Positions 14,906 through 49,520 of a DNA stretch of 64,000 nt are shown here, piece after piece; positions within the stretch are counted from its first letter, which is position 1; each line of letters opens with the position of its first letter. Below the pieces are notes generated by a model that did no database searches, had not been told where the DNA came from, and saw only the letters and a program-made list of their open reading frames with translations. Both the position numbers and the translations under genes were made by a program. The stretch lies in the NCBI GenBank assembly GCA_002722055.1, contig PBKD01000011.1:791-64790 (forward strand), in the 5' to 3' direction. This DNA comes from Rhodospirillaceae bacterium. Its GTDB lineage: Bacteria > Pseudomonadota > Alphaproteobacteria > SHVP01.

Positions 14906-16276
14906 TTGGAAAATATAAATAATAACATTAATTCTGTTTTAAAATTGCTTGAGGCAAATAACTTAGATAAAGCAAAGTTATTACTAGATATTATAATTGA
15001 ACAACAGCCAGAAAATCCATTAATTCTTTTCCTTTTTAGTCAATTTTATTTAAAGAAAAAAAAATATAAAAAATCAATTCATTTTCTAGAAAGGGTAAAT
15101 ATAGCAGCACCTAATAAACCAAATACAAAAATTGCTCTTGCTAACCTTTATTTGAAGATAAGTAATTACTCAAAATGCTATTCAATTTTGTGCGAAATTG
15201 AGGAACTAGCTAAAAATATTGTAGCATTTTTTCAGTTAAAAGGTAATTACTATAAAGCTATTGGCGACATAGATAATTCGATAATAAATTATGAAAAGGC
15301 CTTAAAGTTGCTTCGGAACTCAAGATTTTGGGGTAACAAATATAGTGGTAAAACAATTATAGACCCTATTCAATATAACACATTTAGGTATGCATCTAAA
15401 TCTAAACTTGAGCATGACCTCAATCAAATTGATTACTTAATTAAAACTGTAAATTTACCGATTCATAAAGAGCAAAAGAACCTTAGGGAAGTCATAAATT
15501 CTTGGTCAAAAAGTGTGGATGATGATAAATTAATTTATCTCGATGAGAAAAACTATAACTTAATTAAAAATTTTTATAATAGAGTGATGTATATATCTCA
15601 GTATACAAAAACTAATCATTCAGCACTTAATGAAAAAACTAACTTCAGTAATTTAGAAACAAAATATTTTGAATCTGATCAGCCTATAGTAGTTATTGAT
15701 AATTTTCTCTGTGAGGAAACATTGCAATTACTATGGAAATACTGCTTAGAGTCAACTATTTGGTTCGACTCTAAGGAGAATGGTGGTTACTTAGGAGCAT
15801 ATATGACTGATGCATTCCATCATCCAGCACTAATTCAAATTGCTAAAGATTTACGTCAAAAGATGCCTAAAATTTTTGATAAAAAAAAATTATGTCAAAT
15901 GTGGGCATTAAAATATAAATCTGGAGGAAAAGGAACAAGGCTTCATGCTGATGATGCATTGGTAAATTTAAACTTTTGGATTACACCTGATGAATCTAAA
16001 CAAAATTTAGATAATAATTCAGGCATAGAAATTTATGATAAGCCCGTTCCAGATGATTGGAGATTTGAAGAATATAATCAATCAGATTTAAAAATTAAAG
16101 AGCACCTTATAAAAACAAAGCCAGAAAAAATTGAAATACCTTATAAACAAAATAGAGCTGTTCTATTTGATTCAAAGTTTATTCATAAGAGTCAAAGTAT
16201 TAATTTTAAAAAAGGGTACACTAACCAAAGAATAAATATTACAATGCTTTTTGATAAACAGATCAGGAATTTCTAA
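14906..16276 (+). CDS. TPR-repeat protein with C-terminal 2OG-Fe(II) oxygenase-like domain
   Basis: N-terminal TPR-like helices; HADDALVNLNFWITPD, YKQNRAVLFDS..IH, RINITMLF give the HxD...H...R pattern. TTG start. Confidence 0.75.
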   Translation: MENINNNINSVLKLLEANNLDKAKLLLDIIIEQQPENPLILFLFSQFYLKKKKYKKSIHFLERVNIAAPNKPNTKIALANLYLKISNYSKCYSILCEIEELAKNIVAFFQLKGNYYKAIGDIDNSIINYEKALKLLRNSRFWGNKYSGKTIIDPIQYNTFRYASKSKLEHDLNQIDYLIKTVNLPIHKEQKNLREVINSWSKSVDDDKLIYLDEKNYNLIKNFYNRVMYISQYTKTNHSALNEKTNFSNLETKYFESDQPIVVIDNFLCEETLQLLWKYCLESTIWFDSKENGGYLGAYMTDAFHHPALIQIAKDLRQKMPKIFDKKKLCQMWALKYKSGGKGTRLHADDALVNLNFWITPDESKQNLDNNSGIEIYDKPVPDDWRFEEYNQSDLKIKEHLIKTKPEKIEIPYKQNRAVLFDSKFIHKSQSINFKKGYTNQRINITMLFDKQIRNF

Positions 16277-17036
16277 AAATATAATTTGGGTCTGTTTTAT
16301 TATCAACTATATAACCTAAACTCTCCAAATCTTTCACAATCTCTAAGTGTTTATCTATGTTCTGATTAATTTCAATTAAAATAGTTTTTACTTTACCCTT
16401 TTTTATAGTCTGCATCCCGCCAGCTATAACCTTATCTTCAAAACCATCAACATCTATTTTTATGTGATCAGGAGAAGGAATGCCTCTTTCAACTAATGAA
16501 TCAATTGTCATAGCCATACATCCTTGAGTAAAAACTGGTTTAAACTCTTCTAATTTTTCACTATAAACATCAACTGTATTCATTGGTTTATCAAAACCAT
16601 GCAAAGCCTGCCCTGCAGTAAAACTTGATAAATTCAATTCACTAATTTTCTCCTCATCAGACATTGCAAAGCACAAAGCAGTTACCTTATCTTTTAAATT
16701 ATTTAGTAAAATATTCTTATTTAGGACTGCATAATTCTGAGATTCAGGCTCGATTGCAATTACATTAATACCTTTTGTTGCTGCTGCCCAAATTGAGTAC
16801 ATTCCAACATTTGCCCCAATATCAAACATAATATCATCTTGTTCAAAATTACTTATCCATTCTAAAGTTTTTGGCTCATTAATATATAGCCTCTCAGCTC
16901 TCCATTTTGTTGGTATAGTTGGAGTACTGAAAATAATTTTTTTTCCATTATTTTCCTCGATATGTACAGGGTGAATCTGAGCATATTGCTCTAGTGTTAA
17001 TTTTAATTTTTGGACATCCGGGCTAATATTACTCAT
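16263..17036 (-). CDS. FkbM-family methyltransferase
   Basis: FDIGANVGMYS, IEPESQN, HIKIDVDGFE.KV..G. Confidence 0.9.
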   Translation of the reverse strand: MSNISPDVQKLKLTLEQYAQIHPVHIEENNGKKIIFSTPTIPTKWRAERLYINEPKTLEWISNFEQDDIMFDIGANVGMYSIWAAATKGINVIAIEPESQNYAVLNKNILLNNLKDKVTALCFAMSDEEKISELNLSSFTAGQALHGFDKPMNTVDVYSEKLEEFKPVFTQGCMAMTIDSLVERGIPSPDHIKIDVDGFEDKVIAGGMQTIKKGKVKTILIEINQNIDKHLEIVKDLESLGYIVDNKTDPNYIFRNS

Positions 17037-17144: not shown

Positions 17145-17891
17145 ATGATTAACAATTCTTTAAATATAACTACCAGAAATATTGAGCAAAAAATTGTTAC
17201 AAATGATCCCTTTTCTCATTTTTACATTAACAATGTATTTCCGGAAGAATTATTTGAATCATTACATGATAATTGGCCTGAGATTAATCTATTTGAAAAC
17301 GGAAAACAGTTAGGCATTAACATTGAGGCAGAACGTTTTTATTTTAAACTTAGCAAAGAAAATATTAAAAACCTTTCTGGAGAAAAACGGTTTTTTTGGG
17401 AAAAAATAGAAAAATGGTTAACATGCGATGAGCTTGTTATAATGCTATTAAATAAATATAAAAAAGATATAGACTTTTTAAAAAAAAATAATATAGAAGA
17501 TTACTATCGAAATAATTTAAAAACAAAAGTTACCTTTAATACTTCATTAGTTATGGATGTGGGGGGGTATGAATTAAAACCTCATGCTGATGACCCTCGT
17601 GTAATTCTGAATTTATTATTTTATCTTCCTTATGATGAACTAGGAAAGGAATTAGGAACATCTATATATACTTCCAAAGATAAAGACTTATCAAAAAAAT
17701 ACGAAAACCAAGAGGTAGCACGCTTCCCAAGGGATTGGTTTAACTTAGTCAAAACTTTTCCATATAAACCTAATAGTTTATTTTCATTTGTACGGTCTAA
17801 TGAATCGTTCCATGGTGTTGAGTCCTCAGAGAACAAATCTTATACCAGAAGATTGATGCTGCTTTCATTAATGCTTGAGAATAAATCATAG
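17145..17891 (+). CDS. 2OG-Fe(II) oxygenase-family protein
   Basis: DPF.HFYI.NVFP, PHADD, LLFYLP, GTSIY, F...N.SFHGV, RRL (HxD...H...R). Confidence 0.75.
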   Translation: MINNSLNITTRNIEQKIVTNDPFSHFYINNVFPEELFESLHDNWPEINLFENGKQLGINIEAERFYFKLSKENIKNLSGEKRFFWEKIEKWLTCDELVIMLLNKYKKDIDFLKKNNIEDYYRNNLKTKVTFNTSLVMDVGGYELKPHADDPRVILNLLFYLPYDELGKELGTSIYTSKDKDLSKKYENQEVARFPRDWFNLVKTFPYKPNSLFSFVRSNESFHGVESSENKSYTRRLMLLSLMLENKS

Positions 17892-17918: not shown

Positions 17919-18584
17919 TCAATATATATAATTTTCTTCTTTAGACCGTGTTCTTATAAACTTAGCAGGACTTCCATAATAGATTGAATTACCTCCTACT
18001 CTTTTATTAAGATATGAATTAGAACCAATTATAGAGTCATTATCTATTGAAGTATTATTTTTCACAACTGCTCCAATAGCAATGTAGGATCTATTGCCAA
18101 TAGTTACATTTCCGCCAGTTACAACACGCGGGCCTATAGAGGAAAAATCTAACATATTGTTATCATGTTCCAGACATGAATTAGTATTTAGAATACAAAA
18201 TTTACCAACCTTTGTTTTTGGACCTACAACAACATTTGGCATAATAATACAACCTTCTGCAATGGAAGCTCCAAGTGAAATAACTGCAGTTTTATGTATA
18301 AGTTTAGGAAATTTTATGGATCTATACTTGGAAATTATATCATTAAATACTCTTTCCCTTAGAAAGTTACTTCCAAATGAAAGTGCATAATCATAGTCTT
18401 CAATATTTTTTATTTCTTCCATTTGCTCTAATATTGGTACATTTAAAAAATTTTTCTTTCTTTTATCTTTGTCAATGAAATAACAAACTTCATACCCAGC
18501 TGAACATGCTACGTTATGAACACTTACAGCATTACCTCCTGCCCCTAAAATTATAAGTTTATTATTTTTCTTTTTTACATTCAT
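17919..18584 (-). CDS. NeuD/PglD-type sugar N/O-acetyltransferase (LegH-like role)
   Basis: IILGAGGNA, LIHKTAVIS, hexapeptide repeats, GSPAKFIR. Likely start is the ATG at 18584. Confidence 0.88.
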   Translation of the reverse strand: MNVKKKNNKLIILGAGGNAVSVHNVACSAGYEVCYFIDKDKRKKNFLNVPILEQMEEIKNIEDYDYALSFGSNFLRERVFNDIISKYRSIKFPKLIHKTAVISLGASIAEGCIIMPNVVVGPKTKVGKFCILNTNSCLEHDNNMLDFSSIGPRVVTGGNVTIGNRSYIAIGAVVKNNTSIDNDSIIGSNSYLNKRVGGNSIYYGSPAKFIRTRSKEENYIY

Positions 18585-18592
18585 TGTTATAA

Positions 18593-19750
18593 TTATACCG
18601 CAAGCTTGCAAGCTTCATATATTTTTTTGATGATCCATTCTTGTTTATTCTTTTCTAAATTAGTAGAACATGGCAATGCAATAAACTCTCTCGAAATTTT
18701 TTCTGTTACATTTGTTTTTGAATGTAAATATTTTTTGTAAGGTTTTTGGGTAGACAAGTTCTGCCAAAATAATTTAGCTTCAATATTATTTAAATTAAGA
18801 TATTGAATAATTTTATCAATGTTTGGGTGAACCCTTCTATTAACTTGAACGCCACTCATCCAAGCTGAGCTTATAGACCATTTTGGACATGGAATTGAAC
18901 TTAAGCCTGGCACATCAGTAATTGCTTGATTATAAGTTTCGAGTATACGCCTTTTATTATAAATAAATTCATCAACTCTATCTAGTTGAGCGCAGCCTAT
19001 GGCAGCCTCAACATTTGTCATCCTATGATTATATCCAATCACATCATGATTATATGATCCATTATATACTTTACCGGTACCACTTTTTTCTCTTATTAAA
19101 CCCATAAGACTTTTATCATTTCCAATTACAGCACCACCACCACCAGTAGTTATTATTTTATTTCCATTAAACGAGAAAGTAATTAACCCAGATATATTTT
19201 TAGCAATTTGATTATTATTATACTCCGCTCCAATAGAAGCAGCACCATCAATAATGACTTTAAGATTATACTTATTAGCAATTTGCTCCACTGCATCAAT
19301 ATTACAAACAATTCCTAATGTATTAACAGGCATAATACATGCTATTTTTTGTCCTGTTTTATTATGATATATATGATCCCCTTTCCAATTCGTTTCACAC
19401 CTCAATTGCTCATCAACTAAATTACAATCTAGTGTCCATGATTTAGATTCTATATCAATAAACCAAGGAGAAGCGCCTGACATACTTACAGAATTTGCCG
19501 TAGCAACAAATGAATACGCAGGAATAATAACTATATCACCATAGCCAATACCACATGATTTAAGGGCAAGGTGAAGAGCAGAGGTTCCTGAAGATGTTGA
19601 AACAGTATACTTTCCACCAGTTGATAGAGATAATTTTTTTTCAAACTCTTTTATATACGGACCAGAAGATGAAACATAACCACTAGAAATACAGTTTTGT
19701 AGTAATTTACTTTCATTTCCATCAAGGTTTGGCTCTGCTAAAGGAATCAT
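18593..19750 (-). CDS. legC: LegC-family DegT/DnrJ PLP aminotransferase
   Basis: IPL.EPNL.GNE....CI.SGYVSS.G.YI.EFE, FSFNGNKIITTGGGG (PLP Lys), GYNHRMTN..AAIG.AQL. Confidence 0.85.
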   Translation of the reverse strand: MIPLAEPNLDGNESKLLQNCISSGYVSSSGPYIKEFEKKLSLSTGGKYTVSTSSGTSALHLALKSCGIGYGDIVIIPAYSFVATANSVSMSGASPWFIDIESKSWTLDCNLVDEQLRCETNWKGDHIYHNKTGQKIACIMPVNTLGIVCNIDAVEQIANKYNLKVIIDGAASIGAEYNNNQIAKNISGLITFSFNGNKIITTGGGGAVIGNDKSLMGLIREKSGTGKVYNGSYNHDVIGYNHRMTNVEAAIGCAQLDRVDEFIYNKRRILETYNQAITDVPGLSSIPCPKWSISSAWMSGVQVNRRVHPNIDKIIQYLNLNNIEAKLFWQNLSTQKPYKKYLHSKTNVTEKISREFIALPCSTNLEKNKQEWIIKKIYEACKLAV

Positions 19751-19753
19751 TTT

Positions 19754-20497
19754 TTACCCTGTAGCAAATTTCATTTGAGATTTATCGTCTAAAATTGTCG
19801 AACTTTGCATGATTGATTGCGCAAAAGAGAAATCTTGTTCCGTGTTAATATCAACCGCTTCATATTCATTTATATATAATGGATTAAAGTTTTTATAATT
19901 TATTATAATACCTCTATCTCTAATAATTTTTTGAATATAAGTATTTCTAGAAAACATAATCAGTGGGTTAGAATAATATAAATTAGGAAGTTCTTGCCTT
20001 CTCTCGGGCTTTTTGATATCAGCAATAAACTCTTCTATATTGTCTCCATTTTTTTTAAACATAAAAAAGGGATGCTCTTTAACTTTAGTAACACTTAAGA
20101 CAGAGTCATACTTATCACCTATCATAGATATAGCTTTATTAATATGAATTTTAGTTCTCATAGGAGATGTTGGCTGTAAATAACCTACCAACTCTGGTAC
20201 CCAGTTATTTTCAATTTTTAACCAATTTAAAGTATGATTTACTACATCTATTGCTTTAGAAGTATTTCCTGATAAAAATTTAGGCCTCAAAAAAGGAACT
20301 TCTGCTCCTAATGTCCTAGCAATATTAGCAATTTCTATTGAGTCAGTAGAAACAATTACCCTATCAAGATTGCTATTTATTGCTGCATTTATGGTGTAAT
20401 AAATTAAGGGTTTGCCTTTGAGCAATCTTATATTTTTCTTTTTTACTTCAGAGGAACCAATCCTTGCAGGAATTATACCAAGAGTTTTGAAATTCAT
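19754..20497 (-). CDS. neuA: Acylneuraminate cytidylyltransferase (NeuA/LegF-type)
   Basis: IIPARIGS..V.KKNIR.L.GKPLI, VSTDS, FLRP..LS, LQPTSP.R, VDINT..DF. Confidence 0.9.
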   Translation of the reverse strand: MNFKTLGIIPARIGSSEVKKKNIRLLKGKPLIYYTINAAINSNLDRVIVSTDSIEIANIARTLGAEVPFLRPKFLSGNTSKAIDVVNHTLNWLKIENNWVPELVGYLQPTSPMRTKIHINKAISMIGDKYDSVLSVTKVKEHPFFMFKKNGDNIEEFIADIKKPERRQELPNLYYSNPLIMFSRNTYIQKIIRDRGIIINYKNFNPLYINEYEAVDINTEQDFSFAQSIMQSSTILDDKSQMKFATG

Positions 20498-21579
20498 TCT
20501 GCTGCCTTTTCTTGATTAGCACCAGGTTGTTTGATTGATACTGGAAGATAACATTTTCTACACATATCGATCTTATTATATTCTCCACTAGAATGTTTAT
20601 TTCTTATATCTTTATATTTTTCACCATTCCAGATGTTATATAGTTTTTCTTTTTTCCAATTTCCTACAATGACCTCATCTTTATCATCAACACAGCATAT
20701 CGTAACATTTCCATTATTTTTTAAAAACATTCTATGAAAAGGCTGAGCACAATGGAACCCAGGAACATATTCATACTCTCCACTTATCTCCTCATCTCTT
20801 TCTGTATACCAACTATAGCCAACCGCATCAACGATACCTTTCCACATAACCTGTAATGCCTTATACTGCTCCATCCATTTTGGGTCATCATACATAACCA
20901 TTGAAACTCTTACCTGGCAACTTGGTCTGATCTTATTTCTTAACTTTACAAATTTATAGAGGTTATCTATTGTTCTACCCAGAGTTGCTCCAACTCTTTG
21001 AGTTTCGTAGTCCTTAGGGTTTACTGCGTCAAATGAAATAAATAAGCCATCAATACCTGCTTTTAAAAGTGACTCAGAATTCTTTTCATTTAGCGCAGCT
21101 CCGTTAGAGTTCATAATTACATCTATTACACCTTTTTTCTTTGCATATTCTATTTGCCAAGCAATATCTTTATGCATTAATGGCTCACCTAAATAATTAA
21201 GTTTAATTGATCTTAAGTTATATCTTGTGCCTTCATCAATAATTTTCATAAATTCGTCTTTTGTGATAAAACCGTTCTCATTGAACTTACCTTGCTCTAC
21301 TAATTGTGTTCTTGGACACATTGGGCACTTAAGATTACAATAAGTTGTAGTTTCAATATCTAAATGAAGAGGAAAATCAATATCTGTAAAATTCTTAGGA
21401 ATATTTGTCCAATCAGATCTATATTTATGATACTCATCAGGTTTTAAGTTTAACCATTTATCATCAAGAGTAATTTCACTATAAGTTGCGTTAGGATCAA
21501 ACTCCCATGGAATTGATTCATCAATATCTCTAATTGGGGAATTAAATTTTTTAATTTTATCTAAATTTTCATTCTTCAT
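20494..21579 (-). CDS. Radical SAM protein with SPASM/Twitch domain
   Basis: CNLKCPMC (CxxxCxxC), LNYLGEPL, NSNG, C-terminal CAQPF...G.V..CC.D...GN...IWNG...R...C.KC. Confidence 0.92.
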   Translation of the reverse strand: MKNENLDKIKKFNSPIRDIDESIPWEFDPNATYSEITLDDKWLNLKPDEYHKYRSDWTNIPKNFTDIDFPLHLDIETTTYCNLKCPMCPRTQLVEQGKFNENGFITKDEFMKIIDEGTRYNLRSIKLNYLGEPLMHKDIAWQIEYAKKKGVIDVIMNSNGAALNEKNSESLLKAGIDGLFISFDAVNPKDYETQRVGATLGRTIDNLYKFVKLRNKIRPSCQVRVSMVMYDDPKWMEQYKALQVMWKGIVDAVGYSWYTERDEEISGEYEYVPGFHCAQPFHRMFLKNNGNVTICCVDDKDEVIVGNWKKEKLYNIWNGEKYKDIRNKHSSGEYNKIDMCRKCYLPVSIKQPGANQEKAAE

Positions 21580-21585
21580 TTTATA

Positions 21586-22680
21586 TCACCATATATTTTG
21601 AATTGGTTCACCTGATTTATAATTTTTATTTGCTTTTTTACCAATTAAATCCCAAATTTTCATCGGTGAAACACCGTTTCCTGGTCTTAAAGCAATAAGA
21701 TTATCTCTTGTAAATTCAGTTCCTTTTATTATTTCTTTTCGGGCAGTTAAACTTTTTCTAGCAACAAACTTATTACACTCTTCAGATTTTAAAGATTGCT
21801 TTATTTCACTCCCCAAAGCTACCTCAACTTCTCTTATTGATTTTATCAGATGATTTAATTCATTTGGCTCTATTGAAGCTTTGTGATCAGGCCCAGGTAA
21901 ATTTTTATCTAATGTAAAATGTTTTTCAATAACTGTTGCACCTAAAGCAGCTGAAGCAATTGTTACTACACTACCTTCACTATGGTCAGAATAACCAATA
22001 GGTACATTAAATTTTCTAGATATTTCACTCATACTATTTAAATTTATAGAATCTAATGGAGCAGGGTATTGTGATGTGCAATGTAATAAAGTTATATACT
22101 TACTTAGTAATGAATAAAAAGAGTCAGTGTATAAATATTTTTTTATTTCACTCTTAGAGCTAATATCTCTATTTTTTTCTAAATAAGTAAATACGATTAA
22201 CCCCAAAGCATCTTCAATTTCATTCATATTTGACATGCCTGTAGATACAATCAAAGGTAAATTACTTCTTGCTGATTTAACTAGCAAAGGACCATTTGTA
22301 ATCTCCCCTGAAGGTATTTTGATTCTCTTTATTCCAAATGAAACTAATTCATCTAAACTTTCTTCATCAAATGGTGTCGCAAGAAATTCAATATTCTTTT
22401 TATTACATCTATCAATTATTTTCTTTATATCACTTCTATTGAGTTCTAATTTTTTTAACATTTCAAATTGAGACTCTAAAATATTTGTATTATTTTTTTG
22501 ATATTCTGCTTTTGGAGTATCTTTTATTAATAACTTTTCAGTTTTATAGTATTGAAATTTAATTATATCTGCACCTGCATTAGCTGCCGTATCAATTAAC
22601 TGAAATGCTCTGTCAATATCTCCATTGTGATTGACACCAGCTTCTGCAATAAATATTATTTTATTTTTATTAATCATCAT
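21586..22680 (-). CDS. neuB: Nonulosonic acid synthase NeuB/LegI (canonical)
   Basis: IAEAGVNHNG, KFQ, TPFD, KIPSGE, STGM, LLHCTSQYP, GYSDH, EKHFTLD, C-terminal AFP-like domain with ARKS. Confidence 0.93.
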   Translation of the reverse strand: MMINKNKIIFIAEAGVNHNGDIDRAFQLIDTAANAGADIIKFQYYKTEKLLIKDTPKAEYQKNNTNILESQFEMLKKLELNRSDIKKIIDRCNKKNIEFLATPFDEESLDELVSFGIKRIKIPSGEITNGPLLVKSARSNLPLIVSTGMSNMNEIEDALGLIVFTYLEKNRDISSKSEIKKYLYTDSFYSLLSKYITLLHCTSQYPAPLDSINLNSMSEISRKFNVPIGYSDHSEGSVVTIASAALGATVIEKHFTLDKNLPGPDHKASIEPNELNHLIKSIREVEVALGSEIKQSLKSEECNKFVARKSLTARKEIIKGTEFTRDNLIALRPGNGVSPMKIWDLIGKKANKNYKSGEPIQNIW

Positions 22681-22682
22681 TT

Positions 22683-23486
22683 TTAAAAAAAGAAATTATT
22701 GAATTCTCTATTTGCTTTTTCTAGATCAACTTTTTGTCCAATATCACACCAATAATCTCGAATTTTATAAACAGATATATTTTTATTATCATTTTTTATA
22801 AGGTCAATTACCTCTGTCATATCAATAAATGTATTCTTATTTATATAATTTAAAACTTCTGGTTCTATTACATAAATACCTGCATTAACAAGATATTTTT
22901 TATGAGGTTTTTCAGTCAATGTTCTTAAATAATTTTTTTCTTCTTCCACGACTCCATAGGGTATTTGGATACTCTGCTCAATTGCACATATTGTAGCTAA
23001 TGCTTTTGATTCTTTGTGTCTCTTAAGTAATTCATCAAAATCTATGTCCGTCAATATATCAGCATTCATTATTATAAGCGGTTTTTTAGGTTTCTTATTC
23101 AACAATGATAATGAGCCTGCAGTACCTAAAGCACAATTTTCTCTTAAGTATTTTATATTAGCGCCAAACTTAAGACCATCCTGAAAATGATCTTCAATCA
23201 TTTCACCTAAATAATTTATGGAAAGCCAGAAATTAGTAAACCCCCTACTAATAAACCTTTTAATTGTAGTCTCTAATAATGGTCTTGGCCCTACTTCTAG
23301 CAATGGTTTCGGACGTAGATTTGTTAATGGTGCTAATCTTTTACCATTACCACCGGCCATTAGTACTACAGCTTCACAATTATGTTTAGAAGTATTTATT
23401 TTGTTAGAAAAAGTACCAAATAACTGTTGATTTTCAGTTAAATTATTATGGTTAACTACTGTATCTAAACCTAATATTTCACCCAT
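22683..23486 (-). CDS. Sugar-phosphate nucleotidyltransferase (PtmE-like), no CBS domains
   Basis: VLMAGG.GKRL.PLT...PKPLL, LGTAGSL, MNADILT, NAGIYV, YWCDIG. Confidence 0.85.
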   Translation of the reverse strand: MGEILGLDTVVNHNNLTENQQLFGTFSNKINTSKHNCEAVVLMAGGNGKRLAPLTNLRPKPLLEVGPRPLLETTIKRFISRGFTNFWLSINYLGEMIEDHFQDGLKFGANIKYLRENCALGTAGSLSLLNKKPKKPLIIMNADILTDIDFDELLKRHKESKALATICAIEQSIQIPYGVVEEEKNYLRTLTEKPHKKYLVNAGIYVIEPEVLNYINKNTFIDMTEVIDLIKNDNKNISVYKIRDYWCDIGQKVDLEKANREFNNFFF

Positions 23487-23623
23487 TTATTCACCAAAAG
23501 TTGTAATATTTAAAATGAATTTACAACAACTAGGTTACTAATCAGTTAATTTTGAGATTTCTAGAGTCTATCCGCGAATAAAAAAATATTATTATAAAAG
23601 TTAAAGATTAGTTAATTTTTCAT

Positions 23624-24622
23624 TTATATAGAATAATTACCAAATCTATAGAAACTTAGGTTTAGTGGATCATCAAACCATTCAATTGTTTTTTTCAATC
23701 CATTTATAAAGCCACCCTTACCTGAATACTTTGGCTCCCAACCCAAAAGCATCTTTGATCTACTGTTATCTGACCAAAGTCTATCAACTTCACTCTCATC
23801 AGGCCTCTTTCTTAACTCTTCAATATTAATAGAAGTTTGGAAACCCATTAAATCACTAATCAAATTAGCAGTTTCACCTATTGAAATTTCAAAGTTATTA
23901 CCAAGGTTAAGAATTTCTCCCTCCGCTATACCAACTTTTGAAGCTAATATTAAACCATTAACTGTATCTTCAACATAGCTAAAATCTCTTGTCGTATGCG
24001 TGGATCCTAATTTAATTAAATTTCTACTTTCTTTTATCTGCGTAATAATTGTGGGTATTACTGCTCTTGTAGATTGTCTAGGTCCATATGTATTGAAAGG
24101 TCTAATTATTGTTATCGGTAAACTAAAGCTATGGTAGAATGATAAACTCAATTGATCCGCTGCAGTCTTACTAGCCGCATAAGGTGATTGAGCATTCAAC
24201 CTATGATCTTCACTCATTGGAACATATTTAGCAGAACCATAAACTTCGCTTGTTGATGTTATTATAGTTTTTTGTATATTTAAATCCTTAGCCGCCATTA
24301 ATATATTTAAAGTTCCCATCACATTTGTTTCTATAAATGTTCTTGGAGCTTTATAAGAATAAGGAATACTCATCATAGCAGCTAAATGAATTATATTAGT
24401 GCAGTCTGAAGCTATATCTTTCATTAATTCTGCATCTCTAATATCTCCACTTATTATTTCAATAGAATCAAATATTTTCTTATCAATATTATCTAACCAA
24501 CCATTAGATCCAAAAGAATTATAATGAACCATAGCCCGGACATCTTTACCTGACCTGACAAGCTTTTCAACCAAATGAGAACCAATAAAACCGTCTGCCC
24601 CTGTTACTAAATATTTTTCCAT
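23624..24622 (-). CDS. legB: NAD-dependent nucleotide-sugar 4,6-dehydratase (LegB type)
   Basis: VTGADGFIGSHL, HYNSFGSNGWLD, HLAA..SIPYSY.AP, STSEVYG, YAASK, PFNTYGPRQS.RAVIPTII. Confidence 0.9.
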   Translation of the reverse strand: MEKYLVTGADGFIGSHLVEKLVRSGKDVRAMVHYNSFGSNGWLDNIDKKIFDSIEIISGDIRDAELMKDIASDCTNIIHLAAMMSIPYSYKAPRTFIETNVMGTLNILMAAKDLNIQKTIITSTSEVYGSAKYVPMSEDHRLNAQSPYAASKTAADQLSLSFYHSFSLPITIIRPFNTYGPRQSTRAVIPTIITQIKESRNLIKLGSTHTTRDFSYVEDTVNGLILASKVGIAEGEILNLGNNFEISIGETANLISDLMGFQTSINIEELRKRPDESEVDRLWSDNSRSKMLLGWEPKYSGKGGFINGLKKTIEWFDDPLNLSFYRFGNYSI

Positions 24623-24637
24623 TTATATCTCACTTTT

Positions 24638-25387
24638 CTAAGCAGCTAAATTTGTTTTTAACTTTATTTCTTTGGGTTTTTTTTGATTAACATTTGAATT
24701 TATTTTTTTTAATTTTGGATTTTTATCTAAAAATTTTATTACATCATTCAAACTAAATATTTCACCGCTTTTATATAAATTTTTAAAAATAATTTTCATT
24801 AATTCAAAGTCAGGTTTTTCATCAACAGTTAATCTTAAACCTGAATTACTATAATTTTTATTATGAAATAGTTCTCCTAATTTAAATTTATTTGTTCTTA
24901 AAAAATATTGCGGCCAAAACTCAGTCTCAGAACTATCTTTAATATCGCAGGCTTTATCTAGTGATGATCTATTCACTGTCATTGTGAATGTTCCAAAAGG
25001 TATATTTTTTGACATTGAAAAATCAAATTTTCCGTTGATATGATAATCTATTAATTCATCCATAAACAAATTATCAATTAGTGGGTTATCAGCTGTACAG
25101 CTTGAAATTACATCAATGTTGTAAAAATCAGCTGCATCCCTAAGTCTTAGCATAACATCATCTGGATGACCCCTAAAACAATCTAAGCCTTCTTTTAATG
25201 CAAATTTTTCTAAATCATCGTCTTGATCAATTGTTGAGGTGCACAATACAATGCGGTGACATTTTTTTGAATGTCTTAATCTATCTACCAAATGACCTAG
25301 CATTGGTCTACCACAAATAGGGAGTAGGACTTTCCTCTTCAACCTTTGAGACTTTAATCTGGCGGTAATGAAAGATGCTATTTTCAT
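24638..25387 (-). CDS. SpsF/KdsB-like ulosonic acid cytidylyltransferase (second copy)
   Basis: TARL.S.RL..KVL..I.G.PML, DD.L, FRG...DV..R...AA, TADNPLID, RLTVD...DFEL. Confidence 0.85.
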   Translation of the reverse strand: MKIASFITARLKSQRLKRKVLLPICGRPMLGHLVDRLRHSKKCHRIVLCTSTIDQDDDLEKFALKEGLDCFRGHPDDVMLRLRDAADFYNIDVISSCTADNPLIDNLFMDELIDYHINGKFDFSMSKNIPFGTFTMTVNRSSLDKACDIKDSSETEFWPQYFLRTNKFKLGELFHNKNYSNSGLRLTVDEKPDFELMKIIFKNLYKSGEIFSLNDVIKFLDKNPKLKKINSNVNQKKPKEIKLKTNLAA

Positions 25388-26385
25388 TGAATATCATCCA
25401 TTGTAACCAAGTTATGAAGTGAAATATTCTTATTAAGAACTTTTCCTTCTATCATTGATAATAAATCAGGAGACAAACCAAGCTTTGGACCCCTCAAAGC
25501 AATTAAATCATTATTATTTATTTTTTTACCTTTAACTAAGTCATGTTTAGCAACTAAACTTTTCCTTGAATATTTTCTATAATTTTCTTCATCTTCATTA
25601 AATCTTCTTGGAAATCCAGAACCCCTAGAAAGATCTATAGTATGAATCATATCAACAAATTCTTTGAATTCTGAAGGATTAAGAGCAGACTCATGATCTA
25701 AACCTTTGAAACTTCTATCATGTGTTAAATGTTTTTCTATTACATTTATTCCCATACCATAAACTGCAGCTGGCAACCAAAATGCCTCCATTTTATTTGC
25801 ATCACAGTGATCTTGATACCCAACAGTTAAACCATACAAATTAGAAATTTTTTTCATATACTCTAAATTTAAACTTATTGCTGATGTTGGAAATAATTGA
25901 TAACCATACATTAACCATATCGGGGAATTTGAGGTAAATCTTATAATTTTTATAGCAGAATCAATCTCACTTATAGTTGAAGCCCCTATACTTAAATCTA
26001 TTCTTTTTTTTGTATTAGCTACAGCTGATAGAATTTTTGGATTAGAAATGTCCGAAGCATGAATTTTATAAGCATCAACACCTAAACTTTCACAAAATTT
26101 TATACTTGCTTCATCATATACACAGGCAATTATGGAAAGTTTTGGAAAATTACCCTTTGTATATTCATATAAGTCTAACCACTGTTCTTTATTTAACTCA
26201 ATATCTTTTAATTTTTTAAAATCCGGACTATGTTTCACCATAATATCTTCTGCCGTCCAAATTTGAAATTGTATTGCATTAGCATTAGCTATACCAGCTG
26301 AGTCAATTATTTTTTTTGCTAAGGATACATCTCCTTCGTGAGAACAAGCCATTTCAGCTATTATATATGGTTTATTTTTATTCAT
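25384..26385 (-). CDS. Second, divergent NeuB-family protein
   Basis: IIAEMACSHEG, QFQ, KIHASD, GYQDH, IEKH.T.DR...G.DH..AL.P, AFP-like C-terminus with SRKS. Confidence 0.85.
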   Translation of the reverse strand: MNKNKPYIIAEMACSHEGDVSLAKKIIDSAGIANANAIQFQIWTAEDIMVKHSPDFKKLKDIELNKEQWLDLYEYTKGNFPKLSIIACVYDEASIKFCESLGVDAYKIHASDISNPKILSAVANTKKRIDLSIGASTISEIDSAIKIIRFTSNSPIWLMYGYQLFPTSAISLNLEYMKKISNLYGLTVGYQDHCDANKMEAFWLPAAVYGMGINVIEKHLTHDRSFKGLDHESALNPSEFKEFVDMIHTIDLSRGSGFPRRFNEDEENYRKYSRKSLVAKHDLVKGKKINNNDLIALRGPKLGLSPDLLSMIEGKVLNKNISLHNLVTMDDIQ

Positions 26386-26472
26386 TTCTGCCCTTTTAAA
26401 TTTGTATTTTATTTTTGAGTAAATATAGTTAATAAATATTTAATATATTTTTATTTCAATAAATTTTAATCA

Positions 26473-27651
26473 TTAACCTGAAATAAAATTTGATTTTTGG
26501 TTAAATGATTTAATTAGCAATTCACTTGTATTAATACTTAATATTTTTTTAACAATTTTCTTGGATGCACCAGGAGTGCCATAAGGGTTAATAGTATTCG
26601 CAACTTTTTTCTGGAAGCTAGGTGATAGCCCAATATGTAAACCCTTAGTGATATCTGTATATTCTTCCGAACAATTAATGATACTATTTGCTTTCAATCT
26701 TCCATTTTGTCTAGAACCAATATTTAAAGTTGGAGTACCCAATGATGGTGCTTCAATTATTCCGCTCGAAGAATTACCAACTAAAATATCTGCAATTTTA
26801 ATTAATGATAAATATAAATTTTGCCCAAATGAATCTCTTAAAATTAATTTATTTTCTTTTTTACATTTTTCTAAATATTTATTTATTGTTAAACCCATAG
26901 AGTCAGCATTTGATTTACTAACTAATACCGTTTTATCTTCAATTTCATCAAAAGCTTTGAATATATTTTTTAAAACTTCTATAGGATTTTTATTTCCAAG
27001 AGTAGCAGGATGATAGCTTAATAAAATAATTTTTTTCTTCAATGAAATATTTAACTTATTTTCTAATTCTGATCTTGAGAACATAGGAAGAGAATTTATA
27101 TTGTCCAACCCTGGAGCACCATAATTATATACATTTTTTGGATTTTCTCCCATTTGAATAACTCTTTGTTTATAATTTTCAGCGCAAGTAAAATGTAAAT
27201 GAGACATTTTAGTAATTGCATGCCTTATAGACTCATCAATCGAACCTTCTGATGACTCTCCACCGTGAATATGTGCAATTGGAATATTTAAAATCATTGC
27301 GGCCTGAGCTACTCCAAGCGCTTCATATCTATCACCAAGAATAACTAATATATCTGGTTTCAACCTATTTAATTCCTTAGAATATAATTTAATTCCATTA
27401 CCCAAATTATTTGCAATATCTATCTTTCTATCGTTTTTTAAATTTAGTTTAATTTTTGAGTTAATATTAAATCCATCATTCTCTATTTCCTTGAATGTCA
27501 TACCGAAATTTTTCGATAAGTGAGAACCAGAAACCATAATTTGTAAATTTAATTCGTTTCTATCATTTATTTCTATCATAATTGGCTTTAAAAGCCCGTA
27601 ATCAGCTCTTGTTCCTGTAAAAAAACAAATATTTTTTTTATTTTTTAACAA
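26473..27651 (-). CDS. neuC: Hydrolysing UDP/GDP-GlcNAc 2-epimerase (NeuC/LegG)
   Basis: TGTRADYG, SGSHL, GDRYE, HIHGGE.SEGSIDESIRHAITKMSH, GNSSSGIIEAP, IGSRQ.GR. Confidence 0.93.
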   Translation of the reverse strand: MLKNKKNICFFTGTRADYGLLKPIMIEINDRNELNLQIMVSGSHLSKNFGMTFKEIENDGFNINSKIKLNLKNDRKIDIANNLGNGIKLYSKELNRLKPDILVILGDRYEALGVAQAAMILNIPIAHIHGGESSEGSIDESIRHAITKMSHLHFTCAENYKQRVIQMGENPKNVYNYGAPGLDNINSLPMFSRSELENKLNISLKKKIILLSYHPATLGNKNPIEVLKNIFKAFDEIEDKTVLVSKSNADSMGLTINKYLEKCKKENKLILRDSFGQNLYLSLIKIADILVGNSSSGIIEAPSLGTPTLNIGSRQNGRLKANSIINCSEEYTDITKGLHIGLSPSFQKKVANTINPYGTPGASKKIVKKILSINTSELLIKSFNQKSNFISG

Positions 27652-27655
27652 CTAA

Positions 27656-29263
27656 TTACTCTTCCTTTAAAATATTTAAGGCATCTTCACATGTAATTTT
27701 AGTGAATGATTCATAGCTGCTGTGGGGACAACAGTTATATACCTCGGGCACAGATAATCCAAATAATTTTGAAACAGCCATCATTTGAAATTTTGTGATA
27801 TCATCAAAGAATTTTGCATCATTTATTAACCTTCTATTCGCTTCATTCTTCGTATCGTTACAATCAGATTGCCCAGTAACTCCGCCAAAAAAATAGAGCT
27901 CTTTGCTAGATTCATCTTTTTTCTCAAAACCTGAATTACCTCCATCAGCACCAAAAATAAATATTCTTTTTGGAGCGGCTAAACAAATAACAGGTAATAA
28001 TACAGATAGAGTATTTCCAGGAAGAAAATGTAATGGTGTAGCAATAGACGGAACAAAAAGATTAGAATTTATAAATAATAATTTTTCGTCAAACTCTTTG
28101 ACGATTGACTCCATTAAACCATATTTAGAATTTAAACCCAGAAAAGAGTATTGAGATGAGATTAGAAAATTTTTATTTTTTGATTTTAAAAACTGCTTAT
28201 AAGCTTCCCATCTGTAATTTAAATCTGATGGGTTAGTTACTGTTAAAATATCAATATTTTTCCCCTCTGGTAAAATATTATTTTCTAACTCATTAAATTT
28301 ATTCAAACTTGCATAACATAAATTAAACTTATTAAACTCTTCTATATTTTTTTTGAATTCTTTTATTGACGGTCCATATAACATCACTGCAACGTCTCGC
28401 CCTTTAACAATTTCTCTCATTTTTAATATTCTATTATATGAAGATGGTAAATATGTGTCAGGTCCGTCTGTATATAGATCTTTAGGGGAAATATTATCAG
28501 AAATAATTGAATAAAGTTCTCCCGCTTTTCTTTTATTACCTAAAATATGATATATCCAGGCAGCAAGTATTTGAATAGTATGTGATTCTATACTGCTTGC
28601 ATTTTTAGATATATCAATACAATACTGCAAAGCAGTTGTTAACACTTGTCTAGATTCTTTATTTTTACCTGAATATTTTAAGCATAATCCCCAATATATA
28701 TAGTAGACAGGCTCAACTGTTTTAGTTTTTTTTGAAATAAATTCATAAACCTCTGAAGCTTTATAAAAAAAACCTGCAAGTCTATATGTATCTGCAATTT
28801 CTGTTAAAAATTTTACATCATTTTTCTTATTTTTTTTTACTAGAGAAAAACTTTTGTCTATTGAAAATTTAGCATCTTTATAATCTTTATATGATTGACT
28901 TTGATTCATTCCTAATTTAAGCCAATACTCTGGATCTTCTGGTCTTTCCTTAATTAACTTCTTAAAAGTATTAATAGCATCATCATGCTTTAAAGTACTT
29001 TGCTGGATATTAGCAATTATTGAATAAGCCTCTATACTTGGCAACCTTTTAACTTGATTCTCAAGAATAGTTCTTGCCTCATCAAATTTTTCTAAATGAG
29101 TTAAAACCTTAGCCTTATGGAAAAGAGCTGATTCATTTAGTTTGTCAAAATCTAACAACTTATCATATAATTTAAGCGCAAGGTTATATTTTTGATCAAT
29201 AAAGGCACTATGAGCTTTCTGTAAATATTTTTCATTCAAAGACTGATGAGGTATAAATTTCAT
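27656..29263 (-). CDS. TPR protein with C-terminal Maf/DUF115- or sialyltransferase-like domain (putative nonulosonate transferase)
   Basis: The N-terminal half has TPR-like repeats. The C-terminal half shows KGRDVAVMLYGPSI ... LN.F ... D ... GNT ... KRIFIFGADG ... YFF ... VYNC..HS....F, resembling the GxGPS/GxD pattern of Maf and CstII-like folds. Confidence 0.55.
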   Translation of the reverse strand: MKFIPHQSLNEKYLQKAHSAFIDQKYNLALKLYDKLLDFDKLNESALFHKAKVLTHLEKFDEARTILENQVKRLPSIEAYSIIANIQQSTLKHDDAINTFKKLIKERPEDPEYWLKLGMNQSQSYKDYKDAKFSIDKSFSLVKKNKKNDVKFLTEIADTYRLAGFFYKASEVYEFISKKTKTVEPVYYIYWGLCLKYSGKNKESRQVLTTALQYCIDISKNASSIESHTIQILAAWIYHILGNKRKAGELYSIISDNISPKDLYTDGPDTYLPSSYNRILKMREIVKGRDVAVMLYGPSIKEFKKNIEEFNKFNLCYASLNKFNELENNILPEGKNIDILTVTNPSDLNYRWEAYKQFLKSKNKNFLISSQYSFLGLNSKYGLMESIVKEFDEKLLFINSNLFVPSIATPLHFLPGNTLSVLLPVICLAAPKRIFIFGADGGNSGFEKKDESSKELYFFGGVTGQSDCNDTKNEANRRLINDAKFFDDITKFQMMAVSKLFGLSVPEVYNCCPHSSYESFTKITCEDALNILKEE

Positions 29264-29352: not shown

Positions 29353-29772
29353 TTAAGTTGATAATTTATTTAAAATATAATTCGCAATATCTTTATCATT
29401 GATTCTTTTGGCGGGTAACAAACTTTCCTTATCTTGAAGAGCTCTCTTAATTAGCAAACTATTCTCTACTTTATCTATTTTTATTCTGAAAATACCAGTA
29501 GCACCAATAACTTGAGGGTAATAATTAGGATCAAGCAATTCTGCTGATAATGATAATTTATTAATTAGGTTATCTTCTGATGTTATTTCTGAGGATCTTG
29601 ATAAAGTTAATGACCAATCATTTTTACCTGCATAAAAAGTAGTATTATATTCTATTATAAGTTCTTTTATACTTGAACTAGTTAAACCAAATTTAAATAT
29701 ATGTTTTGTTATACCAATTGAATGACCCCATTCTTGGAGTTTTTTACTTTTTAGTACGAAAATATTACTCAT
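29353..29772 (-). CDS. Hypothetical protein, possible T5orf172/GIY-YIG-like fold
   Basis: 139-aa ORF with ATG and stop; pattern IFVL...IFKFGLT...N...YAG..DW. Confidence 0.6.
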   Translation of the reverse strand: MSNIFVLKSKKLQEWGHSIGITKHIFKFGLTSSSIKELIIEYNTTFYAGKNDWSLTLSRSSEITSEDNLINKLSLSAELLDPNYYPQVIGATGIFRIKIDKVENSLLIKRALQDKESLLPAKRINDKDIANYILNKLST

Positions 29773-49207: not shown

Positions 49208-49236
49208 TTGGAATAATTCAAACTTCGTTCTATAAT
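49208..49236 (+). promoter_or_regulatory. Sigma70-type promoter for ssrA
   Basis: TTGGAA (49208-49213), 17-nt spacer, perfect TATAAT (49231-49236) just upstream of the tmRNA acceptor piece. Confidence 0.6.
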
Positions 49237-49242
49237 CCTAAT

Positions 49243-49500
49243 GCTTTTTTAAGCTATGATGATAAACGTTAATCAAAATAAGCGTAGCGGACCCGGGGGC
49301 AGTACCCGGCGCCTCCACCAAATAATAACTTTTATGGGGGCGAATCAGGCTCGACGCGCGTAGTAAAAGTTTAATTTTCATTCGGCATGGTACCCACCGT
49401 TATCGGACCAAATTTTAGGTGCCAACGATAATAGAATGGCCCTCGCTGCTTAATATTTAAGCAAGCGCGGTTTGGGAGACACCGGGCAACAGAAGTCTCC
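49243..49500 (+). ncRNA. ssrA: Circularly permuted two-piece tmRNA
   Basis: The T-arm and acceptor 3' end GGACCCGGGGGCAGTACCCGGCGCCTCCACCA (ends 49320) precede a short AT-rich spacer and the 5' half GGGGGCGAA (49336). The acceptor stem GGGGGCG/CGCCTCC has the G3:U70 pair. Tag ORF 49421-49453 encodes ANDNRMALAA*. Ends are approximate. Confidence 0.95.
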
Positions 49501-49520
49501 TATATTTATTTGTCTGGGAA

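Follow-up and report, generated by a model that had tools for sequence, protein, structure and literature searches.

An alphaproteobacterial operon that joins a legionaminic acid core to a radical SAM enzyme and a divergent NeuB-family protein

We have analysed a stretch of 64,000 nucleotides (hereafter the window) from Rhodospirillaceae bacterium (assembly GCA_002722055.1, contig PBKD01000011.1), in which positions 17919-29263 carry genes for the biosynthesis of legionaminic acid (Leg), a nonulosonic acid. This operon most likely makes one or two modified Leg-type sugars activated with cytidine monophosphate (CMP). In the reading that we prefer, to which we give a probability of about 0.5, a standard CMP-Leg core is joined by two independent pairs, each made of a tailoring and an activating enzyme, and both pairs draw on the same sugar pool. 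Genes were found by listing open reading frames, and the window proteins were assigned to families by Pfam and NCBIfam scans. The locus holds eleven intact open reading frames, all on the minus strand, which encode, from high to low coordinate, a tetratricopeptide repeat (TPR) protein, NeuC, a NeuB-fold protein that we call NeuB2, the cytidylyltransferase CT_B, LegB, an NTP_transferase protein, NeuB1, a radical S-adenosylmethionine (SAM) enzyme, the cytidylyltransferase CT_A, LegC and an acetyltransferase (Table 1). The original prediction, made from the sequence alone, had given exactly this list, strand and order. The NeuB2/CT_B and radical SAM/CT_A gene pairs overlap by 4 nt, the radical SAM gene starts 6 nt past neuB1, and the other junctions are mostly 2-15 nt, with two larger gaps of 87 and 137 nt. 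Because the genes overlap or sit 2-15 nt apart at most junctions, we consider the locus a single operon. A promoter and terminator scan was uninformative, the match counts in this AT-rich DNA being those of shuffled sequence, and no transcription evidence was found, the locus being present in DNA runs only. The same gene content is kept in two genomes of the same genus and in other alphaproteobacterial metagenome-assembled genomes (MAGs). In comparison with the two same-genus relatives, all operon genes are under purifying selection, with ratios of nonsynonymous to synonymous substitution rates (dN/dS) of 0.03-0.12 for the extra genes. The extra genes are intact and conserved in relatives, whereas the original prediction had named their pseudogenisation there among the findings that would speak against a novel product.

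In the preferred reading, the core would run from the PtmE-like nucleotidyltransferase through the LegB 4,6-dehydratase, the LegC aminotransferase, the LegH N-acetyltransferase and the LegG 2-epimerase to condensation with phosphoenolpyruvate (PEP) by NeuB1/LegI. In one pair, the radical SAM enzyme, translationally coupled to CT_A, would act on Leg or CMP-Leg by hydrogen abstraction at a carbinol carbon (C8 or C4) and give a keto, epimeric or deoxy derivative, and CT_A would be its dedicated activating partner. We suggest this chemistry by analogy, because the enzyme has a BtrN/BlsE/DesII-like fold and because ElaA/ElaC, described below, offer a precedent. Since the operon has no reductase or aminotransferase for a keto intermediate, either the radical SAM enzyme alone would need to carry an epimerisation or dehydration to completion, or a partner would need to be encoded elsewhere. 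In the other pair, NeuB2, which descends from a synthase and is translationally coupled to CT_B, would either remodel the product of the canonical synthase or use a donor other than PEP (for example, in aldolase-type chemistry at C3/C4), and CT_B would activate what NeuB2 makes. The dependence of NeuB2 on the synthase product, or on a non-PEP donor, is proposed because its metal site is kept, its PEP pocket is rebuilt and it strictly co-occurs with a canonical NeuB; we hold it only slightly more probable than a plain second PEP-dependent synthase. Transfer from the resulting CMP-sugars to flagellins, or to some other acceptor at the surface, would probably be the task of the TPR protein or proteins.

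Seven of the genes are supported by their family matches as the core of the GDP route to CMP-Leg, comprising LegB, LegC, LegH, LegG, LegI, LegF and a PtmE-like protein, and the profile-based identification agrees with the original prediction here. TIGR04180 was the best model for LegB (4e-136, covering positions 2-297 of 297, 22 bits below the cut-off), and TIGR04181 was the best model for LegC even though the score stayed under its cut-off. NeuB1 retains every PEP and metal residue in the active-site alignment, and it clusters with synthases of Leg clusters and with B. subtilis SpsE in a tree of 60 sequences. CT_A matches the CMP-N-acetylneuraminate synthetases 6ifd (4e-25) and 1eyr in the PDB. 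The PtmE-like protein has 267 aa with the NTP_transferase domain at residues 40-261, which is 37-47% identical to the nucleotidyltransferase domain of CBS-containing proteins from Leg clusters. The earlier label "ptmE-like" was right for this domain and not for the two CBS domains, which Pfam did not find in the protein and which the 137-nt upstream gap is too short to hold. The form without CBS is kept in two other loci (L029, 94% identity; L100, a 263-aa form), and its dN/dS is 0.03-0.05. Kint et al. reported that LegX together with LegBCHGIF is enough for Leg synthesis and flagellin glycosylation (10.1101/2022.03.25.485807), and on this basis the remaining four genes are extras. As a separate observation, NeuB1 carries an insertion of about 25 aa at residues ~165-192 that is common to a clade of loci (L027, L029, L030, L033, L034, L046 and L060) and missing from N. 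meningitidis NeuB, B. subtilis SpsE and NeuB2.

NeuB2 differs from NeuB1 in its lineage and in its active site. It matches the Pfam NeuB (151 bits) and SAF (28 bits) domains and falls below the equivalog cut-offs, both that of TIGR03569 (Table 1) and that of PseI (161 bits against 340). In the 60-sequence tree, it belongs to a separate deep clade (SH-aLRT 98) that contains no solved NeuB, PseI or SpsE reference; its best PDB match is 6ncs. The profile classification and NeuB phylogeny that had been proposed as a check thus place NeuB1 above the TIGR03569 cut-off and NeuB2 far below it and in another clade. We describe the active sites in the numbering of N. meningitidis NeuB. All canonical enzymes retain K53, Q55, K129, S154, S213, D214, H215, E234, H236 and D247, and nearly all retain S132; the six other NeuB paralogues of this genome retain the same set. 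On the one hand, NeuB2 keeps E25, K129, D214, H215, E234, H236, D247 and R314, which include the metal ligands H215 and H236 and, in the SAF domain, R314. On the other hand, it carries the signature A27-C28-S29, Q53, C110, H131, G182, Q184, F186 and Q213, in which the sites surrounding PEP are changed (K53Q, T110C, G131H, C182G, N184Q and S213Q), while K129 and mostly S132 are kept. Positions 110, 129, 131, 132, 182 and 184 surround PEP, and this region is conserved in the isozymes for neuraminic (Neu), legionaminic and pseudaminic (Pse) acids (PMC7371886). At the positions scored, the NeuB2 signature occurs in 120/120 of the nearest clusters (clustered at 90%, with 51-100% identity to NeuB2), which span Alphaproteobacteria, Desulfuromonadota, Acidobacteriota and Chloroflexota. 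These relatives are annotated in their sources as legionaminate synthase or SpsE. A term search of the NeuB phylogeny paper PMC8208679 found none of the words on active sites or divergence that were looked for. Decay of NeuB2 into a pseudo-enzyme was considered and rejected, given its dN/dS of 0.12 and the invariance of the substituted signature among these relatives.

The occurrence of NeuB2 follows that of canonical synthases. Among 301 alphaproteobacterial genomes, the NeuB2-clade score rose above the canonical background only here, in one further clear case and in one weaker case. In all checked genomes with a NeuB2-clade gene, a canonical NeuB was present too, in most cases no more than 20 kb away. 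For clade (a), to which NeuB2 belongs, a canonical NeuB lies alongside in 11/12 contexts, and in the twelfth (L039) the canonical copies are on other contigs. In a sister sub-clade (b), both lysines are lost, and the gene is followed by genes for CT_B, Gfo and Aminotran_3. A recurrent block of a radical SAM enzyme, a lysine-less NeuB2-like protein, CT_B, a Gfo/Idh/MocA protein and a class-III aminotransferase was seen in ten loci (L024, L025, L035, L036, L038, L041, L044, L047, L054 and L055), sometimes also with a NeuA-type cytidylyltransferase, and its carriers include Azospirillum soli, Skermanella, Pelagibacter HIMB1748, Aliarcobacter and Hadarchaeota. By analogy with ElaA, the Gfo/Idh/MocA protein and the aminotransferase of this block could oxidise and transaminate C8 of a CMP-nonulosonate.

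CT_B accompanies NeuB2 as a partner. It matches Pfam CTP_transf_3 with 81.8 bits, carries the ARxxSxRLxxK motif as ITARLKSQRLKRK and has 6oew as its best PDB match (1.8e-27). It stands on the non-NeuA branch of CTP_transf_3, which is split from the NeuA type with 100% support. The CT_B tree mirrors the NeuB2 tree, and therefore we consider that the two co-evolve as a pair. The CT_B type is the only non-KdsB cytidylyltransferase of one genome (L097) and the only such enzyme near the clusters of three others (L096, L098 and L099). Six NeuB2 contexts were sampled independently of the radical SAM enzyme. Syntrophotalea acetylenivorans (CP015519, at 1.22 Mb) has genes for flagellin, csrA and fliW followed by NeuB2, CT_B, NeuB, NeuC, a formyltransferase, a cytidylyltransferase, the radical SAM enzyme, PtmE, LegB, LegC and Maf. 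In Thiovibrio, NeuB2 and CT_B adjoin PtmE, NeuC, NeuB, NeuD, LegC, LegB and a TPR-Maf protein, and the cluster has neither the radical SAM enzyme nor NeuA. A 6-Mb genome combines NeuB2 with NeuB, NeuC, NeuD, PtmE, LegB and LegC, and, KdsB aside, it encodes no cytidylyltransferase but one of the CT_B type; NeuB2, CT_B and NeuB are consecutive on two metagenome contigs; and one alphaproteobacterial MAG, found through NeuB2, is syntenic with the window operon. The radical SAM enzyme occurs without NeuB2 (G006/L034, with NeuB1, the radical SAM enzyme and LegC), and NeuB2 occurs without the radical SAM enzyme (L091, L096, L097 and L098). Since each is found without the other, we rejected the idea of one obligatory unit and consider that the window joins two independent add-ons. 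Each modifier has its own cytidylyltransferase, the radical SAM enzyme one of the NeuA type and NeuB2 one of the SpsF-like type. The "doubled" synthase/activation module of the original prediction is not borne out: a recent duplication of neuB and neuA was rejected, because NeuB1 and NeuB2 share 29% identity and come from different deep clades, NeuB2 has its PEP residues replaced, and CT_A and CT_B stand on opposite sides of the fully supported split.

The radical SAM enzyme represents a large family, with more than 120 clusters at 53-80% identity and 1627 representative clusters at E<=1e-30. In 50 members, ranging down to about 31% identity, C81/C85/C88 (CxxxCxxC), C277, C295, C296, C340 and C343 are invariant (50/50), and likewise six Arg residues and an N-terminal block of W42/Y50/Y53/R54/W57. 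The six Arg residues would suit an anionic substrate. The number of conserved C-terminal Cys residues, five, fits a single auxiliary cluster of the twitch type with one spare Cys, and not a full SPASM domain. In agreement, the C-terminal part matches the twitch domain of BtrN (phmmer, 1.4e-9). The AlphaFold2 (AF2) model (pLDDT 86.5) gave Foldseek matches to BlsE (4.8e-13), BtrN (3e-12) and DesII (2.8e-9), with SuiB, MoaA and SkfB interleaved among them, so the kinship with sugar enzymes holds at the level of the fold only. Its dN/dS of 0.03 is the lowest in the operon, together with that of the NTP_transferase gene.

We collected 58 loci from named genomes through the radical SAM gene and labelled their genes by comparison with the window proteins. 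Non-redundant loci with a strong orthologue number 28, and every one of them is a nonulosonic acid cluster; they range from Alphaproteobacteria to Campylobacterota, and more distant relatives in Bacillota and Archaea also adjoin nonulosonic acid genes. The 28 loci contain CT_B (19), NeuB2-clade (18), NeuB1-type (16), CT_A (15), NeuC (15), NTP_transferase (15), Gfo/Idh/MocA (14) and Aminotran_3 (14) genes, and CT_A is the commonest labelled neighbour of the radical SAM gene (12/28 loci). Natural fusions join the radical SAM domain to CTP_transf_3 (P0267), to FkbM (P0297, which in L102 immediately precedes genes for a cytidylyltransferase, NeuB and NeuC) and to a 2-hydroxyacid dehydrogenase (P0309 and P0380). 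As far as protein architecture can tell, these fusions support a pathway shared with the partner activities. Full-text literature searches found no paper linking radical SAM enzymes to the biosynthesis of nonulosonic, legionaminic or pseudaminic acids. Further paralogues were also seen in some clusters: in three Campylobacterota loci (L049, L052 and L053), the same cytidylyltransferase has beside it a second radical SAM paralogue, distant from the first, and three loci of Desulfarculales/Thermodesulfobacteriota (L071-L073) have tandem arrays of 3-5 radical SAM paralogues, which adjoin a NeuA-type cytidylyltransferase in L072 and L073.

Several points weigh against the preferred reading. No reductase or aminotransferase that could take a keto intermediate further is encoded in the operon, the loci that show the co-occurrence of the radical SAM enzyme with nonulosonic acid genes were themselves found through the radical SAM gene, and the NeuB2 contexts sampled independently of it number only six. 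The island does not adjoin flagellar genes in this genome, and the transferase domain of the TPR protein is putative; we infer the substrates, products and acceptor of both add-ons. As for NeuB2, the K to Q, N to Q and S to Q replacements would still be able to hydrogen-bond and K129 is kept in its sub-clade, so PEP use is possible, and the NeuB2-CT_B pair resembles an ordinary SpsE-SpsF-type pair of synthase and activating enzyme. These last points lead to the alternative that NeuB2 is a true PEP-dependent second synthase, whose second nine-carbon acid (for example, with another C4 configuration or N-acyl pattern) is activated by CT_B, while NeuB1 and CT_A make Leg and the radical SAM enzyme tailors that branch only. 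We regard this alternative as possible and hold it tentatively. It fits the retained NeuB and SAF domains with the eight kept residues listed above, the annotation of the relatives, and the constant coupling or adjacency of NeuB2 to a cytidylyltransferase of the type that partners B. subtilis SpsE (PMC7439481). It fits less well with the replacement of the PEP, phosphate and carboxylate positions 53, 110, 131, 184 and 213 in all 120 relatives, when the Neu, Leg and Pse isozymes (PMC7371886) and the six paralogues of this genome keep them, with a sister sub-clade devoid of both lysines, and with several clusters that have two NeuBs and one cytidylyltransferase. NeuB2 was also never the sole NeuB in the checked genomes. 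Considering the separate clade, the invariant replacement at the PEP site and the constant company of a canonical NeuB, a plain second PEP-dependent synthase is not the best reading. The original prediction had expected a second or novel ulosonic acid from the extra neuB, cytidylyltransferase and radical SAM genes; a non-standard acid is a sensible expectation, because these extras are intact, conserved and absent from the characterised routes, and it is the plain second synthase that we would not retain.

A bolder form of the preferred reading would make the radical SAM enzyme a one-enzyme, NAD-independent C8/C4 epimerase or oxidase of CMP-Leg, with the spare Cys of C295/C296 as hydrogen donor, and NeuB2 a PEP-independent, metal-dependent enzyme of the aldolase type that inverts or rebuilds C4 to give 4-epi-Leg. 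We consider this combination unlikely. If true, the cell would display two Leg stereoisomers from one precursor pool, and we know of no description of 4-epi-legionaminic acid biosynthesis. It is more doubtful still that the extras are redundant or accessory, so that only standard CMP-Leg5Ac7Ac is made and the add-ons serve as back-up or condition-specific isozymes. Leg-dependent flagellin glycosylation needs no more than seven genes (10.1101/2022.03.25.485807), and two cytidylyltransferases of different types could be isofunctional, but the Leg pathway has no step isofunctional with a radical SAM enzyme, this enzyme is among the most constrained proteins of the operon, the active-site signature of NeuB2 is invariant and not relaxed, and both modules are conserved across phyla. 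Slightly less credible again is a non-catalytic NeuB2 that forms a heterodimer with NeuB1 and supplies a SAF domain or regulates. NeuB enzymes are domain-swapped dimers, and the constant presence of a canonical NeuB with the kept SAF domain and R314 would suit such a role. Against this, the metal ligands, the acid/base residues and the replaced Q53, C28, C110, Q184 and Q213 are all invariant, which argues for a working, different active site, and the tight coupling of NeuB2 is to CT_B and not to NeuB1. We give the least credence to a radical SAM enzyme that acts off the sugar and instead matures a cofactor or, like SuiB, SkfB and anSME, a peptide or protein; it might, for example, modify the glycosylated acceptor. 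SuiB, SkfB and anSME are among its Foldseek matches, and it has weak NCBIfam matches to maturases; yet neither a precursor peptide gene nor a recognition element of ribosomally synthesised peptides was seen, its five conserved C-terminal Cys residues fit a twitch and not a full SPASM domain, and it is coupled to a cytidylyltransferase, with relatives fused to one or placed between NeuB and cytidylyltransferase genes.

The first gene of the operon encodes the TPR protein, TPR1, which by an analogy of layout with FlmG and OGT is a candidate protein (possibly flagellin) glycosyltransferase. Pfam places TPR families at residues 15-215, and the AF2 model (pLDDT 85.7) extends the helical repeats to about residue 265 and shows a C-terminal half with an alpha/beta domain of about 265 aa. 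Even at E<=5, this domain matched nothing in Pfam or NCBIfam, and it has 13 homologous clusters among 5.8 billion proteins, all of them TPR fusions. The top Foldseek matches, SPY and OGT, reached a TM score of 0.24-0.37 and are dominated by the TPR part. A Maf fusion is not supported, because PF01973 (MptE-like) was found neither in TPR1 nor anywhere in the genome, and an hhalign comparison with a TPR-Maf protein aligned the TPR repeats alone. Of the "TPR-transferase" in the original prediction, the repeats stand, while the C-terminal domain matched no known family, and the comparisons showed neither Maf nor GT-B membership. Upstream of TPR1, a 139-aa protein without a family match has a counterpart with 44% identity beside the TPR1 orthologue in the syntenic alphaproteobacterial MAG (L100). 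On the other side of the operon, three genes are probably part of the island. The 248-aa protein has H147, D149, H223 and R235 invariant in 4 homologues and flanks the Leg operon in three other genomes. The pattern H-x-D...H...R is that of the 2-oxoglutarate (2OG)-Fe(II) oxygenases, and the 248-aa protein is a possible member of them. For this protein and for TPR2, that assignment comes from the motif alone, as Pfam, NCBIfam, PDB and pairwise comparison found nothing. TPR2 is conserved in L029 with 68% identity. The FkbM methyltransferase gene is kept beside the operon in two loci (L029 and L046), and its product may act on the same sugar as the radical SAM enzyme. As originally predicted, dehydrogenase, reductase or PtmG/H add-ons are missing: family scans found no Gfo/Idh/MocA gene, no SDR gene besides LegB and no WbqC/PtmG gene within 14.9-29.8 kb.

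The genome, in which the window corresponds to contig C11, measures 2.16 Mb and has a GC content of about 31%. Among public sequences, the locus has its closest relatives in the marine alphaproteobacterial MAGs "MarineAlpha2_Bin1" and "Rhodospirillaceae NAT392", and at least 20 marine metagenome runs contain almost the same sequence. Base composition gave no sign of recent horizontal transfer, with 26-31% GC in the operon and 27-34% in the genome contigs. The genome has five flagellin genes, a possible acceptor, and no Maf/MptE-like gene was found in it. Seven NeuB-family genes lie in three islands, two of them in the window; in the five outside it, the residues of the active site are canonical and the TIGR03569 scores are 288-377 bits. 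Contig C8 (62 kb, 27% GC) consists almost wholly of same-strand glycan genes and includes three of the NeuB-family genes. The window also carries a tmRNA gene with the tag peptide ANDNRMALAA.

Table 1. Positions and family assignments of the operon genes, the flanking genes and other features
Feature	Position	Strand	Assignment and remarks
TPR1	27656..29263	-	TPR families only (Pfam, NCBIfam); first gene of the operon
NeuC/LegG, hydrolysing nucleotide-sugar 2-epimerase	26473..27651	-	TIGR03568, 461 bits (cut-off 236); Pfam Epimerase_2
NeuB2, NeuB fold with SAF	25384..26385	-	Pfam NeuB and SAF; TIGR03569, 210 bits (cut-off 400)
CT_B, SpsF-like cytidylyltransferase	24638..25387	-	Pfam CTP_transf_3
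LegB-type NAD-dependent 4,6-dehydratase	23624..24622	-	TIGR04180, 453 bits (cut-off 475)
PtmE/LegX-like sugar-1-phosphate nucleotidyltransferase without CBS pair	22683..23486	-	Pfam NTP_transferase
NeuB1/LegI, canonical nonulosonate synthase	21586..22680	-	TIGR03569, 454 bits (cut-off 400)
Twitch-type radical SAM enzyme	20494..21579	-	Pfam Radical_SAM and SPASM
CT_A, NeuA/LegF-type CMP-nonulosonate synthetase	19754..20497	-	Pfam CTP_transf_3
LegC-family pyridoxal phosphate (PLP) aminotransferase	18593..19750	-	TIGR04181, 361 bits (cut-off 420); Pfam DegT_DnrJ_EryC1
LegH/NeuD/PglB-family N-acetyltransferase	17919..18611	-	TIGR03570, 174 bits (cut-off 161); PglD_N and Hexapep
139-aa protein, upstream of TPR1	29353..29772	-	No family match
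Conserved 248-aa protein	17145..17891	+	HxD...H...R motif; unmatched in Pfam, NCBIfam and PDB; probable island gene
FkbM-family methyltransferase	16263..17036	-	Pfam Methyltransf_21, TIGR01444; probably part of the island
TPR2, TPR repeats and C-terminal domain without family (LHADD...FIHKS by eye)	14906..16276	+	Pfam and PDB matches to TPR only; probable island gene
tmRNA gene	49228-49544	+	
NeuB-family gene outside the window	C8:19161-20189		
NeuB-family gene outside the window	C8:27361-28356		
NeuB-family gene outside the window	C8:51553-52590		
NeuB-family gene outside the window	C7:129418-130410		
NeuB-family gene outside the window	C7:131253-132311		

Flagella, capsules, S-layers and spores carry legionaminic and related acids as decorations, which influence how phages, grazers and immune systems recognise their targets. 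To our knowledge, the characterised routes to these acids use only NAD, PLP and acetyl-CoA chemistry, and we know of no characterised route to Leg, 8-epi-legionaminic acid (8eLeg), acinetaminic acid (Aci) or the acetamidino derivatives that includes an extra NeuB, a second cytidylyltransferase or a radical SAM enzyme. The core of the present operon is ordinary; both add-ons are conserved, uncharacterised and of mechanistic interest. The operon shows in compact form how two widespread unstudied families are tied into such pathways, the radical SAM family (about 1,600 clusters at E<=1e-30) and the NeuB-like family (more than 120 clusters in several phyla). Solving the add-on reactions would add radical chemistry to the biosynthesis of sialic acid-like sugars, would explain a synthase paralogue that is now named "legionaminate synthase" in databases, and may account for Leg stereoisomers or derivatives of unexplained biosynthesis. 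Syntrophotalea acetylenivorans, Azospirillum soli and Skermanella stibiiresistens are cultured carriers for genetics.

In comparison with known systems, all seven functions of C. jejuni (PtmE and LegB/C/H/G/I/F) and of Brevundimonas subvibrioides (LegX and LegBCHGIF) are matched here, and LegB lies next to the nucleotidyltransferase gene as in other Leg clusters. Unlike PtmE and LegX, in which two N-terminal CBS domains, described as belonging to the marker of the Leg pathway, accompany the nucleotidyltransferase, the window enzyme has no CBS domain, and LegB and LegC score slightly below the NCBIfam cut-offs. To the content of both systems, this operon adds the radical SAM enzyme, NeuB2, CT_B and the TPR protein. 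For the radical SAM enzyme, the closest comparison is with BtrN, a 2-deoxy-scyllo-inosamine dehydrogenase, BlsE, a cytosylglucuronic acid dehydratase/decarboxylase, and DesII, a further radical SAM enzyme that acts on a sugar. They share with the window enzyme the CxxxCxxC core and a C-terminal, twitch-like domain for an auxiliary cluster. In contrast, the window enzyme is only 14-18% identical to them, is extended at its N terminus by about 70 conserved aa that include W42, Y50, Y53, R54 and W57, has five invariant C-terminal Cys residues, and belongs to nonulosonic acid clusters rather than to clusters for aminoglycoside or nucleoside antibiotics.

TPR1 resembles FlmG, the flagellin glycosyltransferase of Caulobacter and Brevundimonas (PMC7591256), in joining a TPR part of about 265-310 aa to a C-terminal alpha/beta domain of about 270-290 aa, a resemblance of layout and not membership. 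Its setting is also FlmG-like, as it heads a nonulosonic acid operon in a flagellated alphaproteobacterium without Maf. It differs from FlmG and Maf in that our comparisons showed no sequence or profile link to GT-B or MptE-like/Maf domains and in that its C-terminal family is rare (13 clusters). NeuB2 and CT_B recall B. subtilis, in which SpsE is a Leg synthase and SpsF a putative CMP-Leg synthetase (PMC7439481), and the Leptospira structures 6ncs and 6oew, where a NeuB-family gene is likewise paired with a non-NeuA CTP_transf_3 gene. The SpsF likeness of CT_B rests on its non-NeuA branch, its motif and the 6oew match. The difference is that SpsE and 6ncs keep the canonical PEP residues, whereas NeuB2 does not, and that NeuB2 and CT_B are additional to a canonical synthase. 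In the KL49 locus of A. baumannii, which makes 8-epi-Leg, Leg is tailored after CMP activation by ElaB, ElaA and ElaC; ElaA is a Gfo/Idh/MocA oxidase that gives CMP-8-keto-Leg, and the SDR ElaC reduces this to the 8-epimer (PMC13656337). Neither such an oxidase nor an SDR besides LegB is encoded within 14.9-29.8 kb of the window, where the candidate modifier is a radical SAM enzyme. In both cases, a Leg core is extended by an add-on with a dedicated CTP-transferase and with enzymes that act, or would act, on a carbinol carbon of CMP-Leg, and the ElaABC system is accordingly the best precedent for the design of a modifier with its own cytidylyltransferase.

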